Origin: Candidatus Competibacteraceae bacterium
GTDB taxonomy: Bacteria; Pseudomonadota; Gammaproteobacteria; Competibacterales; Competibacteraceae
Direction: 5' to 3'
DNA length: 25,719 nt
Assembly: GCA_039807355.1 (NCBI GenBank)
Contig: JBDHRB010000001.1
Location: 1 to 25,719 of the forward strand
Part shown: in pieces, positions 5,708-25,640 of the stretch
Numbering within the stretch: the first letter of the stretch is position 1
How the letters are laid out: each line of letters begins with the position of its first letter
The notes under the pieces: model-generated
Database searches by the model: none
Told to the model about the DNA's origin: nothing
The model's input: the letters and a program-made list of their open reading frames with translations, nothing else
Made by a program: the position numbers and the translations under genes

Positions 5708-7354
5708 ATGGACCTCGTTCGGTTGCTTCCGCGTTTCGCGAACGTCTTGCTGCTCAATTCGCTTACGGCCGTCGTGTATTTCCTCGTCGGCAAGGCCGCG
5801 CTCTCCCTGGCCTTTCTCCACCCGAGCATCACGGTGGTCTGGCCATCCACGGGGATCGCCATCGCGGCCTGTCTCCTCTACGGGTACCGGGCGTGGCCGG
5901 GCGTGCTGGTGGGCGCCTTCATGGTGAACCAGACGGCGTTGGGGACGGTGCTGACCTCTGCGGCCATTGCCGCCGGCAATACCCTGGAGGCCCTCCTGGG
6001 GGCCTATCTGCTCAACCGCTTTGCCGATGGCCGCAGGGCCTTCTGGCAAGCGGAGGGGGTGCTCAAGTTCGCCGCCCTGGTGGCCGTGCTGAGCACGACC
6101 GTGAGCGCCACCGTGGGCGTGACGTGCTTGGCGCTGGCGGGGGAAACCGGCGGCAGGCCCCTGGACATGATGTGGCTGACCTGGTGGCTCGGCGATGCCA
6201 CGGGCGCTCTCGTCGTCACGCCGGTGATAGTGCTCTGGAGCAGTCCCGTGGCTCTCGCCTGGCAGCGCCGAAGGCCGCTGGAAGGGATGCTCGTCCTGGC
6301 CGTACTGGTTCTGGTCGGCCAGATGATCTTTGGTGTCTTGGCTCCTGTCCCGGCGCAGCACTACTTCCTGGAATTGCTGTTCGTCCCGATCCTGACCTGG
6401 GGCGCGGTGCGCCTGGGTCCGCGCCGCGTGGCTCTCGGGGTCCTGCTGGTGGCCACGACCGCCCTGGTCGGCACGCTGCGGGGCGTCGGCCCCTTCGTCC
6501 GCGATTCGGCGAATACGTCGCTGCTGCTGCTCCAGTTCTTCCTGGGCATCACCGCCGTCACCGCCTTCGCCACGGCGGCGGCGGTAGCCGAGCGCGGCGA
6601 AGCCCTGGCCGCGCTCCAGCGCTCCACCGGCGCGGCGCTGGCCGGCGAGGAACGCCTGCGCGCCCAGATCGCGGAGTTTCTGCATAGCCAGGTGCAAAAC
6701 CGCCTGCTGATGGCCTGGCATCGATTACGGATCGCCTTGCAGCGTTGGCCGGCCGAGCCTGAGGCGGCCCAAACATTAGTGGCCGAGGTCGCCGACCAGT
6801 TGGACGAAATCCGCGAGCAGGACGTGCGCCAGGCCAGTTATCGCCTGCATCCCTCGTTTATCCGGGAAGGCTTGACGCCGGCACTGCATGCGTTGATCGA
6901 GCGCTTCGAGGGCCATGTTGGCCTCGCGCTGGTGATCGACCCGGCCTTGGCGGCGCTGGACACGCCGCTGCGTAACCGCCTGCCCGAAGCTCTGCGCCTG
7001 GCGGCGTATCGGATCGTCGAAGAAGCGCTCGGCAACGTGGCGCGCCACGCTCGGGCGACCTGGGTGCGCATCGCCCTCGGCCTGGACGGGCAGGCAGCTC
7101 TCGTCCTCACCGTCGAGGACGATGGCCGGGGGTTCGCGGTGGATGGTGCGCGGCGGGGTTTGGGGCTGGCCAGCATCGACAGCCGGGTGCAGCAGCTCGG
7201 CGGCGAGTGGCGGATCACGAGCCAGCCGGGGAAAGGCACGACCCTTGCCGTGCGCCTCGCACTGGTCAGTCCGGCGCCGGCGGCGGACCCCTCGGATTCG
7301 CCACCGTCTGGCTCTCCAGCAGATACGCGAGCGCCGCGCGGACCCGCGGGTTGA
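5708..7354 (+). CDS. MASE1-domain sensor histidine kinase (HisKA_3/HATPase type)
   Basis: N-terminal multi-TM MASE1 signature (VVWPSTGIAIA, AAGNTLEALLG, WWLGDATGALVVTP); H-box EFLHSQVQ; EALGNVARHA, VEDDGRGF, GLGLASI, GKGTT. Start taken at ATG 5708 inside the longer ORF. Confidence 0.9.
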   Translation: MDLVRLLPRFANVLLLNSLTAVVYFLVGKAALSLAFLHPSITVVWPSTGIAIAACLLYGYRAWPGVLVGAFMVNQTALGTVLTSAAIAAGNTLEALLGAYLLNRFADGRRAFWQAEGVLKFAALVAVLSTTVSATVGVTCLALAGETGGRPLDMMWLTWWLGDATGALVVTPVIVLWSSPVALAWQRRRPLEGMLVLAVLVLVGQMIFGVLAPVPAQHYFLELLFVPILTWGAVRLGPRRVALGVLLVATTALVGTLRGVGPFVRDSANTSLLLLQFFLGITAVTAFATAAAVAERGEALAALQRSTGAALAGEERLRAQIAEFLHSQVQNRLLMAWHRLRIALQRWPAEPEAAQTLVAEVADQLDEIREQDVRQASYRLHPSFIREGLTPALHALIERFEGHVGLALVIDPALAALDTPLRNRLPEALRLAAYRIVEEALGNVARHARATWVRIALGLDGQAALVLTVEDDGRGFAVDGARRGLGLASIDSRVQQLGGEWRITSQPGKGTTLAVRLALVSPAPAADPSDSPPSGSPADTRAPRGPAG

Positions 7355-7976
7355 ACTGCAAGGATTCCTGGCCCAGCCCCAGTTCCTGATAGATCCCATT
7401 CAGCTGGTTTTCCACGGTGCTCGGGGCGAGGTGCAGCCGCTCGGCGATGACCGCATTGGTAAAGCCTTGGGCGATCAGGACCAGCACGTCCCGCTGGCGG
7501 GGGCTCAGCCGCGCCAGCGCCCCGCCCGGACGGGGACGGCGGCGCGCGACGATGTAGGGATCGAGCACCACCAGCCCGGCGGCGGCTCCCTGGATGGCGC
7601 GCACCAAGGTGTCCACGGCCGCGACCGACCGTTTCAGCAGGTAGCACCAGCCGGCCATGCTGACGGGCGGGAGCATCGCCAGGAAATGCGGTACCCAATG
7701 GTTGGAGAGCAGCACGATGCCGAGCGCCGGGAACCGTTCGCGCAGGAGTAGCCCGAGCTGAATCCCGCTCAAGCCCGCGCCGAGGTCGATGTCGAGCAGC
7801 GCCACCCGGGGCTGGAGTGCGGGGATATGCTGGAGGGCGTCGGCGCTCCGGCGGAACACCCCCACCACCTCGATGGCGGGGGGCTGATGCAGGGCCGCGC
7901 GCAACAAATCCAGCAGCAGCGGTTCGTCCTCCACCACGGCCACGGTGATCACGGTCCCAGGCAGCGTCGTCCCCAT
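7266..7976 (-). CDS. NarL/LuxR-family response regulator (REC plus LuxR HTH)
   Basis: VAVVEDE, ALLDIDL (phospho-Asp), YLLKRS, LSPRQRDVLVLIAQGFTNAVIAERLHLAPSTVENQL; strong SD (AAGGAGG) upstream. Confidence 0.93.
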   Translation of the reverse strand: MGTTLPGTVITVAVVEDEPLLLDLLRAALHQPPAIEVVGVFRRSADALQHIPALQPRVALLDIDLGAGLSGIQLGLLLRERFPALGIVLLSNHWVPHFLAMLPPVSMAGWCYLLKRSVAAVDTLVRAIQGAAAGLVVLDPYIVARRRPRPGGALARLSPRQRDVLVLIAQGFTNAVIAERLHLAPSTVENQLNGIYQELGLGQESLQFNPRVRAALAYLLESQTVANPRGPPPAPD

Positions 7977-8331
7977 CGTTCCCCTCCTTTGGGTCCATAA
8001 CGGGCCCGGCTATTCGATTACCGCTTCCTTGCGGGTCGGTGACAAGGAAGGTCACCCTTCAGATTATGTACCCTGAAAAATTGGGTGCTTACCTTCTTGT
8101 TCGGCCTCCATTGTGTCACTACCCTTCGTGCACTCTGGATTTTTGGTTGTCTGGCGTCGAACACCTTATGGATTATTCAGACAATAACCCTTACCGCTGG
8201 TTTTATTCAGTATGCCTTTGATTTTGCTGAATGTCGATCCGTCGATACCGGCAACAACCGATCCATAAGTATTTGATTTCCCTAGTTAGAAACGAACTGG
8301 CGCCATTGGTTGATAAGGATACATTTGACTT

Positions 8332-8397
8332 GCGTCGAACTCCGGCAACGCCCCGCCTGGGTTGGTCGGATTCAGCGTCCCTTTTCCCGACAGGTAC
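8332..8397. repeat. 66-bp perfect inverted repeat, copy 1 (non-coding leader)
   Basis: Exact reverse complement of 9917-9982. The same peptide ELRQRPAWVGRIQRPFSRQV appears in ORF 8310(+) and ORF 9807..10886(-). Confidence 0.95.
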
Positions 8398-8429
8398 ATA
8401 TCGTTTCATACCCCCAAAGGAGACGAAAC

Positions 8430-11400
8430 ATGGCAACCAATACCATCGGCACATCGACTAGCGGTTTGCAAGTGACGTTCAACAGCACCATGAGTCAGGA
8501 CGTCGTGGCGACGGCGGAAATCCCGGTTTTGTCGACGAGCGCGGCGCCGGTCGCCGTTTTCAAGAATCCGAACGCGGCGGGCGTTGCCGGAAACGGGCAG
8601 TTGGAGGCGCTGTGCATCGCCAATCTGGAATCGGACGGTCAGAGTACGCCGCAGCTCTGCCACGTCGCGCGCGACCGCTCCAGTGCAGGGGGCTGGAAGT
8701 TGGTCCCGTTATTCGGCGGCCGAGCGGCAAGCGAGACGGCGGCCGGTACGGCGTTCCCCGCCAGCTCGCAGCCGGCAATCCATGGATTCTTCCAGGACGC
8801 CAGCGGGACCTATGCGAGCCAACTACAATCCGACGGGCTGTCGTGGGCGCCGCCGGCGCTGATACAAAGCGCGGCCGTTTCGCATCTCCGCGTCGCTTAC
8901 ACGCCAGATGGATTGCTGGTGTTGTACGGCAATACGGAGCAGGGAGACCTCTTCACGGCGTACCAGACGCAAGTGGGTGGTCCGTTCGTGAGCGTGATGT
9001 GTGACATGCAGGGAGGACTTCTCAGCGGCGACTTCGTCCTCTGCCTGATCGACGAACAGAACTGGCAATTGGCCGCCAACGTCAACGGCAAACCGATGAT
9101 TTACACGGGCGTGCTCGGGGCGACGGAATTTGCCTCGGCTGCCCCCGCGTCGCAATTCGATGGGACGCTGCAGCAGGTCGTCTTGGGCTACTGGAACGAC
9201 AGCCAAAACACGTTGCTGTATATGTTCGTAGACAGCGATCACGCGTTGCACGTATGGGCCACGAACGCGGCCAATAGCACCACGGTTTCCCAGCCAATTC
9301 CCAATAGCAACGTGACACGCGCGACGGGCCACGTCAGCGACGATGGCAGTTTGCACGTATACAGCATCGACGACAGCGCCAATCTGTGGGTGCTGCATCA
9401 GTCGCCGAGTAACCCGTGGAATTTCGACGGTACACCGAACTGGGCACCCTACCTAGCGCTCGATACCAACGTGGCGGCGGTCGCCAGCGACATCAATCCG
9501 GCGGCTGCCCCCAGTCTCTTCGCGCTGGATGCGGCCACGTACAGCTTGCGACTGCACGCGCAGGACCCCGTGACCCGCATGTGGCACACCGGACCGGTCC
9601 TGCAGGCGACAGAACAGGCGTATGAACTGGTGCGCTTCCGCACCGAAGTCACCGTGTTGGACGCGAACGGAAACCCGCTGCTGAACTACCCAGTGACGCT
9701 GCGCGTGGCCGACGATTATTCGGCCACCGCGATTGCCGTGGGTGAGCAATCGTATCCCATCGATAGCAGCGCGGATGTGCCAATCAACACGGATATGTTC
9801 GGCAAATTAACGTTCGCCGTGCTGACGACGCAGGGCATGGTCGCGCCGCGCTTCATTTTCAACGCCCAGGGACTTGACGCTCCGATGACCATTGGCCCGG
9901 CCGATCCTGTGCATACGTACCTGTCGGGAAAAGGGACGCTGAATCCGACCAACCCAGGCGGGGCGTTGCCGGAGTTCGACGCGGATGGCAAGACGCTGGC
10001 TGGGGCGCAGGTTGGCGGAGCGAGTTTGGCGCCTGGGGTGACGAGCGATGCCAGCCTGGCCAAAGTCGCCGCCACCGCGATCCGCCACACCGCGCAGGTC
10101 GGGCTGGGGCAGGCGGCAGGCGGCGTGGCCGGTTATGCCTTGCACTTGGCGGATGCGACTGGGCCGTCGTTTCAGCCCCTGCCATCGGCCGAAGCGTTTG
10201 AGGCCCATTTTGTCCAGGTGTTTGGGGCGACGAAAACCGAACTGGGCAGCATCTGGGGCGACATCGTGCACTTCTTCGGTGATATCTGGCAAGGCATCAA
10301 GAGCGGGCTGATCAAGATCAAAGACGCGCTCGTCGACGTGGGCGAGAAGATCGCGCATTTCACCGTGCAGATTGGCGACTGGATTGCCCAGGGGGTCTCC
10401 CTGGCGATCAAGGGCCTGGAGCAAGCAGCCCACTTTATCGCCGGCGTCTTTCACGCGGTCGCCGCCGCCGTCGAAAAGGTCATCGATTGGCTGAAGGCGC
10501 TGTTTGATTTCGCCGCGATCTGGCGGACGAAAATGGCCTTCGAGCAGATCCTCAGCGTGGCGCCAGCCTACATCAAACAAGTCTTGACGCTCAGCGGTCG
10601 CGCCGCCGATGGCTGGTTCAGCAAGCAAAAGCAACACGTGGATAGCGCCTTCGCCAGCTTCAAAGCGCAGTACGCCGGCCAGACGTTTGCGCAGCAACCG
10701 CATTGGCAGCAGCCCGGCCACGGACCCAGCCAGCAAGTCGTAGTCGGAAACGCCTCGCCCGCCGACTTCGGCAACAACGGGCACAACAACTGGCTCCAGC
10801 ACAAGGTGTCTGCTCACGCGCCACGTCAATCGGGATTGTCCCCCGACGATACTGTGTCGCAGGCTTGGAGCGCATTCGCGACCCACGTGGAGAGCGCATC
10901 CCAGGACTTCCTCGGCGCGCTTAAGGATTTTGCCGCCGCGGCTGAGTCCATCGTCAAGAATCCCTTAAGCTTCGGCAGCGTGGCGCTTCCCGACTTCATT
11001 GACATGATTGATAAATTGGTCGACGGCCTGTTGACGTTCGCCGACGCGGTGCTCGACTTTTTTGTGGCCATGGGCGGCACGGCGATGGATGGCTTGGAGA
11101 AGTTCCTGACGACCGAGTTACACCTCGGCTTTTTGAACACGCTCTGGAAATGGATCGCGAAGCTTGCCGGCTACGGCCACGATGACAAGCTGACGGTCTC
11201 CGCCCTCATTGCCTTGTGTGCGGCGTTCCCCGTCACCATTCTCTACAAGCTGGTCGAAGGGGTCGAGCACGAGCCGTTCCCAGATGGCCGCTTCCCCACT
11301 GAGCCGACGGGCGAAAGCGGTCTCGCCGCACTCGCGTCGTCGTACGGACTCCACCCCACCAAGGGCACGCGGATCACATCCGCGGCCCTCCAGATGCTCT

Positions 11401-16422: not shown

Positions 16423-18189
16423 ATCGGGTAAGGGCGGGTGTTTAGCCCGCCCTCCCCACACCACCTAGCATGCGGGTCCGCACTAGGCGGTTCACAAGAA
16501 GGGAGCACACGACGATTTCAGGCATAGCCATGCGCTTTCATCCATTGATCGCGGATGCTGATCAAGCCCTGGCGTTGCAGCCAGTCGTTGGTCATCCCGG
16601 TTTGCGTGCCCAACGAACGGGACCGGCGCCAGTAGCTCTTCGAGCTCATGCCCGTCCAGATCGCGGCACGCTTCGGCGTTCCCGGGGCCAGCAGATGGTG
16701 GATGCGGTTACGCACCCCGCGCCACTGTTTCCAGTAGCACATGCGGATGCGTCACCGCAGCCAGTGGTCCAGCTCGGGAATCGGCCGGTAGTAGTCCGAG
16801 ATGCCGAAGTAGCCCATCCAACCACGGACCTATTCGGCGAGCGGCTTGAGCCGGTAGTCCATGGACACGCCCCAACTCCGGCCGGTGAGCTTGCGCAGCC
16901 GGTGACGGAAGTCCTGGTAGGCGCGCTCAGACCCGCGCAGCTTGCCTCCCCGGAAGGTAAAGCCGAGGAATTCGCACTCGCTGGTCTCGACCACACGGCT
17001 TTTATGCGGGTTGACCACCAGCTTGAGGGTTCCGGTCAGAAAGCGAGACACGCTCGCCATGACCCTTTCACCCGCGCGATGGCTCCGCACGAGGATCAGT
17101 AGATCGTCCGCGTAGCGGACGAACCGATGCCCCCGCACCTCCAGTTCCTTGTCCAGGTCATCCAGCAGGATATTGGCGAGCAAGGGCGACAGCGGCCCGC
17201 CTTGCGGCGTACCGATCACCGTTGCGTCAAGGATATCCCCGACCAGCACACCCGCCCGCAGATACTCGCCGATCAGTGCCAGCAGCCCTTTATCGCGGAC
17301 CTTGCGGCCCACTCGGGCCATCAGGACATCGTGCTGGACCGTGTCGAAGAACTTCGCCAAGTCCAGATTGACGGCAATTCGGTAGCCATCACCGATGTAG
17401 GTTTGTACCCGCCTCAATGCTCCGTGGGCGGAGCGTCCTGGCCGGAAGCCAAAACTCGAATCCGAGAATCCTGGATCGAAGATCGGTCCCAGAACTTGCG
17501 CAATGGCCTGCTGGATGGTGCGGTCTGTCACCGTCGGGATGCCGAGCGGGCGCTCGCCACCGTCGGGCTTGGGGATCGTCACCCGTCGTACCGGCACTGG
17601 CCGGTATGTGCCATCACGCAAGGCTTGGCGGATCGCCGGCCAGTTCGAACGTGCGAACTCCGGGAAGTCCTCGACGCGCATCCCATCCACACCGGGAGCG
17701 CCCTGGTTGGCCTTCACCCGCCTCCATGCCCGTCGTATGTTCTCGCTTTCCAGCACCCGCTCCATCAGGTCGTCGTGCAAGGCTGGCTGCGTGACATCAC
17801 GCCGCGACGCGTCTCCCCCGGACGGGTTCGACGACGCGCGCGAGCAATCCACGGCTCCGCCTTGTCTTCTTATGTTCAGCCCTTCATCGCGCCGCCCGTC
17901 CGCGGGCGGGCAATTACTATGGCCTCGGCTGACTTCTGTCCTGTCACGCCAGAAGTTGCCGCCCGGCGCGCTGCCCGAGTCGCGGTAGGGTCCGGTGGTG
18001 TGTCCAGCCCTTTCGGGCTGGCCCTCAGTCCGGCTCCCCTGGCGACCACAGCCCCCCGTAGAGTTCGATGGCTTGTCCAGCCCTTTCGGACTGGGCCTCA
18101 GTTCGACTCCCAAAGCGGCACGGACCGCCTGCGGGACAGATCTCCCCGGATAAGGACATGAACTTTCAGTGCACAACCGCCGCATTTAC
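16423..18189 (-). mobile_element. Group IIC intron, 5' part of domain I missing
   Basis: On the minus strand: DV GAACCGCC...GGTGG with CGC triad (from 16493), DVI hairpin GGGCGGG..CCCGCCC, 3' end CCCGAT (16423), DIII CAGAAGTCAGCCGAGGCCATAGTA and DI segment GTAAATGCGGCGGTTGTGCACTGAAAG. No GUGYG 5' end at the expected distance. Confidence 0.9.
16518..17852 (-). pseudogene. ltrA: Group II intron reverse transcriptase/maturase with two in-frame stops
   Basis: KANQGAPGVDG, RPLGIPTVTDR.IQQA, SFGFRPGRSA, GTPQGGPLSPLLANI, RYADD, FLGF. TAG at 16830-16832 and TGA at 16752-16754 interrupt the maturase domain (…RGWMGYF…RIRMCYWKQW…). No endonuclease domain. Start (GTG 17852) is uncertain. Confidence 0.92.
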
Positions 18190-19366
18190 CCGAAATTGCG
18201 CGAAAGGCCCCGGCGTTGACGCCGGGGATGGAGTGTGCGGCGCACGAAGTTTGCCCGTCTTTTCGAGCAATCTTGTGGATAATCGCTATCATAAACAGAT
18301 GATTAAGACTTTCCGCTACCGAATCAGGGATTCCGCTGCTGGCGCCCGCCTCGACAAGCTGGCGCGGGCGGTCAACGTCGTGTGGAACTTCTGCAACGCA
18401 ACCCAGCATCACGCCTTGCGCTGGAATCGGCGCTGGCCGTCTTATCAAGACTTGTGCAAGCTGACCACCGGCATCAGCCGGGAACTCGGTCTGCATTCCC
18501 AAACGGTGCAGGCCGTCTGCGAACAGTATGCCGACCGCCGCCAGCAGTTCAAGAAACGGAAATTGCGCTGGCGCGGGCGGCGCTCGCCGGGCTGGATTCC
18601 GTTTAAAGCCTCCGGCGTCAAAGTGGTCGGGGACACCGTGACCTACGCGGGGCAGACTTTCCCTTCTGGAACAGCCGTGATCGTCCCGGCGTGATCAAAG
18701 CCGGCAATTTTGCCCAGGATGCGCGCGGGCGCTGGTACGTCAACGTCGTGGTTGAAGCCCCCGATGAAGCGCCGACGACGGGCACCAGACAGATCGGCCT
18801 CGACTTGGGGCTGAAAACGCTGGCGACCTGTTCGGACGGGACCAAAATCGAAGCGCCCCGCTGGTATCGCGCCCAGCAAAAGCGCCTTGCCGAATGCCAG
18901 CGCCAGCGGAAACCGAGGCGAGTCCGCAACCTGCATGCGAAGATCAAAAACCGCCGCCTGGATTTTCTTCACAAGCTCTCGACGCAACGGGTTCGGGATT
19001 GCGAGCTGATCGTGGTCGGCGACGTGTCCAGTTCCAGATTGACCAAGACGAACCTGGCGAAATCGGTGAACGATGCCGGATGGGCCAGGTTCCGCCACCT
19101 TCTCGACTACAAAGCGATTGCGCGGAAGGTGGTGTATTGTGAGGTATCCGAATATCTCACAACCCAAACCTGTTCTCACTGCAATGCCGTGAGCGGCCCG
19201 AAAGGTCGAAAGGGTCTTGGGGTCAGGGAATGGGCGTGCGGCGAATGCGGCGCGGTTCACGACCGCGACGTCAACGCCGCGCTGAACATTCTCCGCTTGG
19301 GGCATCAAGCGCTACGCGCTGAAGGGCGGTAGGAATCCCCGGTCTTCAGGCCGGGGAGGATGTCAA
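18190..19366 (+). mobile_element. Non-autonomous IS200/IS605-family element (tnpB only, IS1341-like)
   Basis: Left end: TTAC(18186-89)| then 13 nt, AAAG and hairpin CCCCGGCG-ttga-CGCCGGGG. Right end: GAAT, hairpin CCCCGG-tcttcagg-CCGGGG, then aggatg-TCAA(19363-66). Both tetranucleotide pairs match the IS608 code. Confidence 0.9.
18299..19332 (+). pseudogene. tnpB: TnpB RNA-guided nuclease with one frameshift near 18663
   Basis: MIKTFRYRI..VNVVWNFCN; 1-bp frameshift at TTCCCTTCTGG; RuvC-I IGLDLGLK; Zn finger CSHC..CGECG; RuvC-III HDRDVNAALNI. Confidence 0.9.
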
Positions 19367-25333: not shown

Positions 25334-25640
25334 GATGAGTCCCCGGCTTGACTGAAATGCTTCATACCTCCTGTATTCGCCTTTCAGTCATTTTCGCTTT
25401 CGCGCTTCGGCACGAAAGCGCGACTCATCCAGGGTCAGCTACCAGAGCGCCCCCGCGCGGGCGCTCTGAGGGGGCTACGTTATTCGGGTCACGATACCCT
25501 GGGGTGCTTCACCAGCCCCAGGCTCTATCGCTGGCGGTTAAACAGCACAGCACCGGGTTAATGGGCCGTGCCGCCAGCTGGACAAGCCCGAATAACATTC
25601 CCGAGGTGACCTTTACCGTCGCAAGACGCGAGTAACGAGT
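25334..25640 (+). ncRNA. HEARO / IscB-IsrB omega-RNA-like structured RNA
   Basis: P1-like GATGAGTC(25334-41)/GACTCATC(25422-29) enclosing two hairpins. Then CAGGG.., GCTACGTTATTCGGG pairing with CCCGAATAAC, CCTGGGGTGCTTCACCAGCCCCAGG, GTTAAACAG, ACAAGCC and AACATTCCCGAGG..CTTTACC, in the motif order known for HEARO/omega RNAs. Confidence 0.75.

Follow-up and report, generated by a model that had tools for sequence, protein, structure and literature searches.

Messenger RNAs in which part of the 5' untranslated region base-pairs with a remote stretch of the same molecule are known from hok, the mRNA of which folds back 5' to 3', and from rnc and pnp, the leaders of which are cleaved under RNase III control; a long perfect RNA duplex is a substrate of this enzyme. 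At the level of the DNA the sap inversion of Campylobacter fetus is a rearrangement switch that depends on RecA, and quasipalindrome-type template switching at replication forks copies short stretches, over tens of bases, in inverted form. Gene-overlapping (partial intergenic) invertons have been defined by reads in both orientations and ascribed to invertases (10.1101/2023.03.11.532203), and for Burkholderia thailandensis a bet-hedging duplication that is mediated by insertion sequences (IS) and dependent on RecA has been reported (PMC9946442). Here we describe an inverted repeat which shares features with each of these systems. It lies on contig JBDHRB010000001.1 of a Candidatus Competibacteraceae bacterium, analysed over its whole length of 25,719 nucleotides (the window), where part of the interior of a gene for a 1158-aa lectin-like membrane protein recurs, in antisense, in the gene's own leader. 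We tentatively regard this copy as a young inverted micro-duplication in a 5' untranslated region (UTR), the main consequence of which would be a self-antisense dampening of expression; the probability that we attach to this reading is roughly 0.45.

An earlier note on this DNA, made from its letters without database searches, had reported a 66-bp antisense copy with zero mismatches placed 32 nt upstream of the start codon, and this description proved exact. Positions 8332–8397 are the precise reverse complement of 9917–9982 (66/66), the repeat ends sharply on both sides, and 32 nt separate the upstream arm from the ATG of the 1158-aa gene, the downstream arm corresponding to its codons 497–518. 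If a single mismatch (A8398 versus G9916) is allowed the match extends to 70 nt (8332–8401 versus 9913–9982). Read on the minus strand, this mismatch turns the ACG of the source (Thr496) into an ATG in the copy. Since a 66-nt match has a chance expectation of about 1e-31 (some 3e8 position pairs × 4^-66), a chance origin of the repeat is excluded. Self-comparison of the whole 2.67-Mb metagenome-assembled genome (MAG) showed it to be the sole spaced inverted repeat of at least 28 nt within any contig, and the 66-mer is present at these two places only in the assembly.

The window corresponds to an entire contig of a MAG which is fragmented (473 contigs) and 68% complete, and this speaks for the possibility, also considered in the earlier note, that the arrangement is a chimera produced during assembly or by multiple displacement amplification (MDA), or from chimeric reads. 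Against this, three assemblies made with different assemblers agree. A SPAdes contig (L006, 7629 nt, 4 mismatches) and a MEGAHIT k141 contig (L010, 5065 nt, 1 mismatch) both carry the two arms, with position and orientation unchanged, and the k of 141 exceeds the 66-bp length of the repeat. Every sampled 31-mer of 7800–10500 was found in each of 14 DNA runs; these come from 10 studies, dated 2018–2025, and represent activated or bioreactor sludge. In DNA runs X9 and X10 the k=31 contigs reach exactly 30 nt into either arm and stop there; the 66-nt core forms a separate unitig, and unitigs spanning the junctions were seen in both runs; such breaks together with a separate core are the de Bruijn graph pattern expected of a true two-copy inverted repeat. 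The depth of the 66-nt unitig in X10 is 63.2 compared with 33–40 in its flanks, that is, about twofold. The repeat is genuine DNA, and an artefact of any of these kinds is so improbable that it may be dismissed. As a separate observation, the same unitig in X9 has a depth of 25.5 and its flanks 23–24, though two copies predict a depth of about twice that of the flanks.

Neither the 1158-aa protein nor the 730-aa product of the following gene matched a Pfam family. In an AlphaFold2 model of the former (mean pLDDT 73) a beta-propeller occupies residues ~14–390 with a pLDDT of ~90 and is followed by an immunoglobulin (Ig)-like sandwich (391–488), a linker (492–530), a long helical region and a C-terminal bundle of membrane helices (978–1157). 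Structure comparison related the propeller to the Photorhabdus PLL/PHL and Chromobacterium CV39L lectins (TM-score ~0.70 by target), in agreement with which its look-alikes in the ESM-Atlas are labelled Beta-prop_PLL and Tectonin. The copied motif (YLSGxGTLNPTNPGG) sits in the linker that joins the propeller/Ig head to the helical and membrane half. In an alignment of 18 sequences the stretch specified by the downstream arm (HTYLSGxGTLNPTNPGGxLPxFDA) is the best-conserved motif of the middle of the protein, residues Y497, L498, G500, L504, P509, G511 and F516 being invariant. Homologues (40–59% identity), which in nearly all cases are followed by a gene of the 730-aa partner type, have a scattered distribution that takes in Acidobacteriota, Streptomyces, Kitasatospora, Actinosynnema, Trinickia, Pseudomonas and others. 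In 11 genomes of the genus to which this bacterium belongs the gene was not found. It is an accessory, horizontally spread gene.

The copy in the leader is not shared by this family. The earlier note had raised the question whether homologous operons in other genomes have an equivalent leader copy, and it is absent from about 40 loci. Self-comparison of 31 homologous loci revealed no inverted repeat between leader and coding sequence (CDS), and a codon-degenerate scan of metagenome contigs of the Joint Genome Institute (JGI) for the motif brought up 9 further loci, each with a single colinear copy and no second, inverted one. Nor do the regions upstream of the homologues share anything with the leader described here. 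The strains which carry the copy are near-clonal, with 1–4 base differences over 5–7.6 kb, and among the sequences compared the copy is restricted to this one lineage; its perfect 66/66 identity indicates that it is young. A scan of the JGI metagenome contigs with the left flank, in any orientation or as an empty site, gave 0 matches, the organism not being in that collection, and neither these contigs nor the matching assemblies revealed a strain in which the site is empty. Three shorter members of the family (P0052, P0065 and P0072) were considered as natural split or inverted forms and were rejected, as they are colinear split or frameshifted genes.

The upstream arm is located in a leader that is specific to the cargo of this locus. 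A histidine kinase gene, a response regulator gene and 146 nt of the adjoining intergenic region (5740–8122) are 84.5% identical to the corresponding part of a related species (L056, 7753–10135), and the leader (8123–8429) is without homology to the leader of this relative. The slot after the regulator holds, in L056, a different and unknown gene of 236 aa and, in a third relative, an ETX/MTX2-like gene. The arrangement has the appearance of a slot with a conserved two-component system, which drives exchangeable cargo. Because the homology to L056 does not extend beyond 8122 and the slot is occupied by other cargos, the leader with its upstream arm belongs to the variable cargo. The intergenic region 7977–8122 is the probable site of the promoters for the regulator gene as well as for the cargo; that of the latter we would place in the conserved block because different cargos follow the same regulator and block in relatives.

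From these data and the following we infer + strand transcription of the leader. A consensus promoter scan found no promoter-like site on this strand between 8068 and 8500, either inside or after the copy, and its only + strand candidate was a sigma-70-like site at 8039–8067, in the conserved part of the intergenic region. The 32 nt to the ATG include the ribosome-binding site, and any promoter that started transcription beyond the copy would have to have its −10 and −35 boxes within the copy itself. The short gap and the lack of a promoter-like site in or after the copy thus place the start most likely upstream, and the copy most likely lies within a 5' UTR of ~300–350 nt. Contigs from RNA libraries (metatranscriptomes) cover 8118–8340 (X15) and, unbroken, 7810–8823 (X26); these are strandless and DNA carry-over is possible, but they are consistent with the presence of the copy in the 5' UTR. 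The cover of X15 and X26 is too shallow for its gaps, over parts of the CDS and of the leader, to be interpreted.

The mRNA would, on these premises, contain 66 nt perfectly antisense to codons 497–518 of the same molecule. The earlier note had pointed out that, if present on one transcript, the arms can form a 66-bp RNA duplex, and our computation bears this out, with a predicted energy of −152.7 kcal/mol. Its 66 bp may be compared with the duplex of at least 22 bp, perfect or near-perfect, that is looked for in an RNase III-controlled leader. Such a duplex would be an obstacle to ribosomes and a target for cleavage by RNase III, and the expected result would be less full-length protein and less of the downstream partner. 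The leader alone showed no notable fold (z = −0.2) and no match in Rfam. At the RNA level the arrangement resembles the long-range leader–CDS pairing elements, in that, as in the hok fold-back and the rnc/pnp leaders, an untranslated stretch at the 5' end would pair with sequence far away in the same mRNA. The helices of hok and rnc/pnp, however, are imperfect, evolved and conserved, whereas the one described here is perfect over 66 bp, involves codons from the middle of the CDS, is unconserved and is known from DNA sequence.

Several points weigh against a self-antisense micro-duplication. The RNA-library contigs could represent DNA carry-over or minus-strand RNA, and that of X26 also reaches into the divergently oriented regulator gene. 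Formation of the duplex might be prevented by coupled translation. The microhomology at the junctions is weak, amounting to 3 nt at one junction and to nothing at the other. Lastly, the location in the linker, the choice of the most conserved motif and the mismatch that makes an ATG look more designed than one might expect of a random scar, an impression which was gained post hoc.

As to the probable mode of origin, the template-switch scar suggested as one option in the earlier note is the best-fitting explanation for a copy that is perfect, lineage-specific and absent from the homologous loci. In a one-off event 66–70 nt of linker-coding sequence would have been copied backwards into the gene's own leader, either through a template switch during replication or through the capture of a fragment at a break, and this micro-duplication would have arisen in horizontally acquired cargo beside the conserved kinase/regulator pair. 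The likeness to template-switch (quasipalindrome-type) mutations and inverted micro-duplications lies in the short inverted copy derived from a nearby source in cis. The classic cases differ in that they involve tens of bases and the completion of pre-existing imperfect palindromes, whereas here the source lies 1.5 kb away and the microhomology does not exceed 3 nt. It comprises TAT after the mismatch on the right and nothing on the left, and because of this weakness the mechanism of origin is a guess. A direct match of 16/19 between 8147–8165 and 8325–8343 overlaps the left junction. Considered as the seed of the duplication, it was rejected, since with so many similar two-copy families a match of this kind is at chance level for this region.

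Of the alternatives, the one that survives best supposes the same micro-duplication but no effect worth naming: the copy would lie outside the mRNA, or the duplex would never form, and the scar would simply decay. This accords with its occurrence in one near-clonal lineage and its absence from the homologous loci, as well as with the lack of a conserved leader element common to the homologues and of a structure signal in the leader. It has to contend with the near absence of room for a promoter after the copy and with the cover of the leader by RNA-library contigs, and a perfect 66-bp duplex within one RNA would be physically hard to ignore. On balance we consider an inert scar unlikely, though by no means far-fetched.

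Slightly less likely again, in our view, is a DNA inversion switch of the partial intergenic inverton type, in which RecA or a recombinase acting in trans would flip 8398–9916 and so split the gene. An inversion switch had been put forward in the earlier note, and its geometry is correct. On the sequence flipped in silico the head half (residues 1–518 followed by SQMYPYQPMAPVRF) forms a 532-aa open reading frame (ORF) facing away from the promoter region and ending, as had been predicted, in EFDASQMYPYQPMAPVRF and a stop codon. The frame of the membrane half starts at the ATG of the junction (ATG-TAC-CTG...) and gives an ORF of 663 aa, with a G-run 11 nt upstream of the ATG and a TGA two codons before it; this ATG exists only because of the single mismatch at Thr496. 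In the flipped state the lectin/Ig head would be silenced, and the membrane half would stay downstream of the promoter together with the partner. In favour of such a switch are also the position of the break, exactly in the linker between domains, and the in-frame ATG that the new junction provides after the G-run. Genes for serine and tyrosine recombinases are present elsewhere in the MAG, unlinked to the locus; there are three tyrosine recombinases, together with fragments of resolvases at the ends of contigs. The 66 bp exceed the minimal length for RecA-dependent recombination, yet recombination by RecA over this length alone should be rare, at about the rate of an ordinary knock-out mutation.

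The operation of such a switch found no support. All three assemblies show one and the same orientation; the k=31 contigs (Logan), which break at the repeat and yielded no joints, are blind to a flip, since an inversion across a 66-bp repeat makes no new 31-mers. The cluster of proteins at 90% identity contains only three full-length proteins and fragments of 88 and 54 aa. A comparison of residues 497–1158 with a collection of 15 billion proteins revealed no near-identical 663-aa protein, and the 532-aa product was found neither in this cluster nor in the collection. The statement in the earlier note that no recombinase is nearby is right for serine and tyrosine invertases, none of which is encoded on the 25.7-kb contig, but not for mobile elements at large, as an IS110 transposase, an IS630-type DDE_3, a TnpB and the reverse transcriptase of a group II intron are found there. 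The repeat is not kept in any relative (neither in the 31 loci nor in the 9 single-copy ones), and no lineage with an inverted head was seen. The arm stems from a conserved coding motif rather than a recombinase site, and the flipped form would bear an antisense leader of 1.6 kb.

The repeat thus has the layout of a partial intergenic inverton and falls short with respect to invertase and conservation. Gene-overlapping invertons are a documented class, and the likeness to them and to shufflons (Milman et al. 2023; Chanin et al., 10.1101/2023.03.11.532203) lies in the bracketing of a segment by two arms (66/66), one in an intergenic leader and the other in a CDS, so that inversion would split or recode the gene into two ORFs. 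Unlike these systems it is seen in one orientation, has no linked invertase and is absent from every relative. Furthermore, its arms consist of 66 bp of conserved coding sequence as opposed to a short recombinase site, and there is no alternative cassette.

A narrower version seems more doubtful still, namely that of a newborn, recombinase-free and gene-splitting switch, in which inversion by RecA would toggle between the full-length, lectin-headed protein and a "headless" membrane half of 663 aa. In common with the RecA-dependent rearrangements of C. fetus (sap) and, as reported, of B. thailandensis, homologous recombination could here flip the segment with no dedicated site-specific enzyme. 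The known cases have homologies of hundreds of base pairs to kilobases and measured switching; here the homology is 66 bp and switching was not observed. If true, this would be an inverton caught at its origin from the micro-duplication of a conserved linker.

It is very improbable that the copy serves the minus strand, whether through a 37-aa peptide mimicking the linker or through a small RNA identical to the sense sequence of codons 497–518, acting on the protein or its partner. While the single mismatch does create an ATG heading a 37-aa open frame (8399–8286), the scan of 7900–8500 found no minus-strand promoter suitably positioned for its transcription, the ATG is separated from the G-run by a long spacing of 11 nt, the frame is open for just 14 codons past the copy, and the ORF has neither homologue nor conservation. 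Only the artefact dismissed above ranks lower.

The features of the locus are collected in Table 1. The contig also carries mobile elements. An IS110-family (DEDD) transposase gene (357–1373, + strand) adjoins ParA/ParB genes, of which the contig carries two pairs. On the minus strand at ~14239–15249 there are pieces of an IS630-type transposase (helix-turn-helix and DDE_3) with internal stops, and a further DDE_3 ORF lies at 15503–16162 (+), in a stretch of low GC content (0.48) right after the partner gene. The IS630-type pieces may mark the route by which the cargo arrived. A TnpB is encoded at 18691–19332. A group II intron was recognized by its RVT_1 reverse transcriptase ORF (16830–18185, minus strand, E = 6e-38) and by a match to the Rfam family group-II-D1D4-1 (17879–17970, minus strand); it lies ~7 kb from the repeat, and no link to the duplication was found. 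At 25396–25616 (+) there is a HEARO (IscB-associated, omega-type) RNA scoring 103.6 bits, which is over the Rfam gathering threshold. The possibility that the contig is a plasmid was rejected, as only the IS110, ParA and group II intron pieces match plasmids of Burkholderiales.

Table 1. Positions, in the 25,719-nt window, of the inverted repeat and of the genes and leader elements around it
Feature	Position	Strand	Remarks
MASE1 histidine kinase	5708..7354	+	Start inferred from the 548-aa length of close homologues
LuxR/GerE-type response regulator	7266..7976	-	Divergent from the cargo gene
Conserved part of divergent intergenic region	7977..8122	.	In the block 84.5% identical to L056; putative promoter region
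Cargo-specific leader with IR-L	8123..8429	+	GC ~0.49; blastn homology to L056 ends at 8122
Putative 37-aa ORF from the mismatch-made ATG	8286..8399	-	Motif, then SQMYPYQPMAPVRF
Upstream arm (IR-L)	8332..8397	+	Antisense to codons 497-518 of the gene starting 32 nt downstream; also in L006 and L010
4-nt extension of the repeat with the single mismatch	8398..8401	+	A8398 versus G9916; ACG to ATG on the minus strand
Shine-Dalgarno sequence AAAGGAG	8416..8422	+	7 nt before the ATG; read from sequence
Gene for the 1158-aa protein (P0001)	8430..11906	+	Propeller ~14-390, Ig-like 391-488, conserved linker 492-530, helical region, C-terminal membrane domain 978-1157
Downstream arm (IR-R), inside the CDS	9917..9982	+	Codes for YLSGKGTLNPTNPGGALPEFDA, the best-conserved motif in the family; alignment and structure model (linker after the Ig-like domain)
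730-aa partner gene, conserved	12030..14222	+	No Pfam family

The two genes of the cargo belong to an uncharacterised family, composed of a lectin-like membrane protein of ~1150 aa followed by a partner of ~730–750 aa with Ig-like C-terminal repeats. Its occurrence over Acidobacteriota, Actinomycetota and Proteobacteria is patchy (window 8430–14222; loci L003–L005, L011–L038 and L045–L055). The defence-system models of PADLOC gave no match for the 1158-aa gene, its partner or the adjoining unknowns. A 54-aa protein attributed to Helianthus anomalus (P0049) falls into the same 90%-identity cluster as the bacterial protein (the cluster of P0002), and is probably due to bacterial contamination of the plant genome assembly.

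Should the copy be only a scar, it would still offer a clean, dated illustration of the way in which the raw material of invertons and of cis-antisense control comes about, a single inverted micro-duplication creating both a substrate for recombination and a self-silencing leader. The family of the lectin-propeller/membrane protein and its partner, which is widespread but uncharacterised, deserves study. If either effect is real, a horizontally acquired and possibly costly surface or toxin-like gene would have been tamed, or made switchable, by a single mutation and with no dedicated enzyme.

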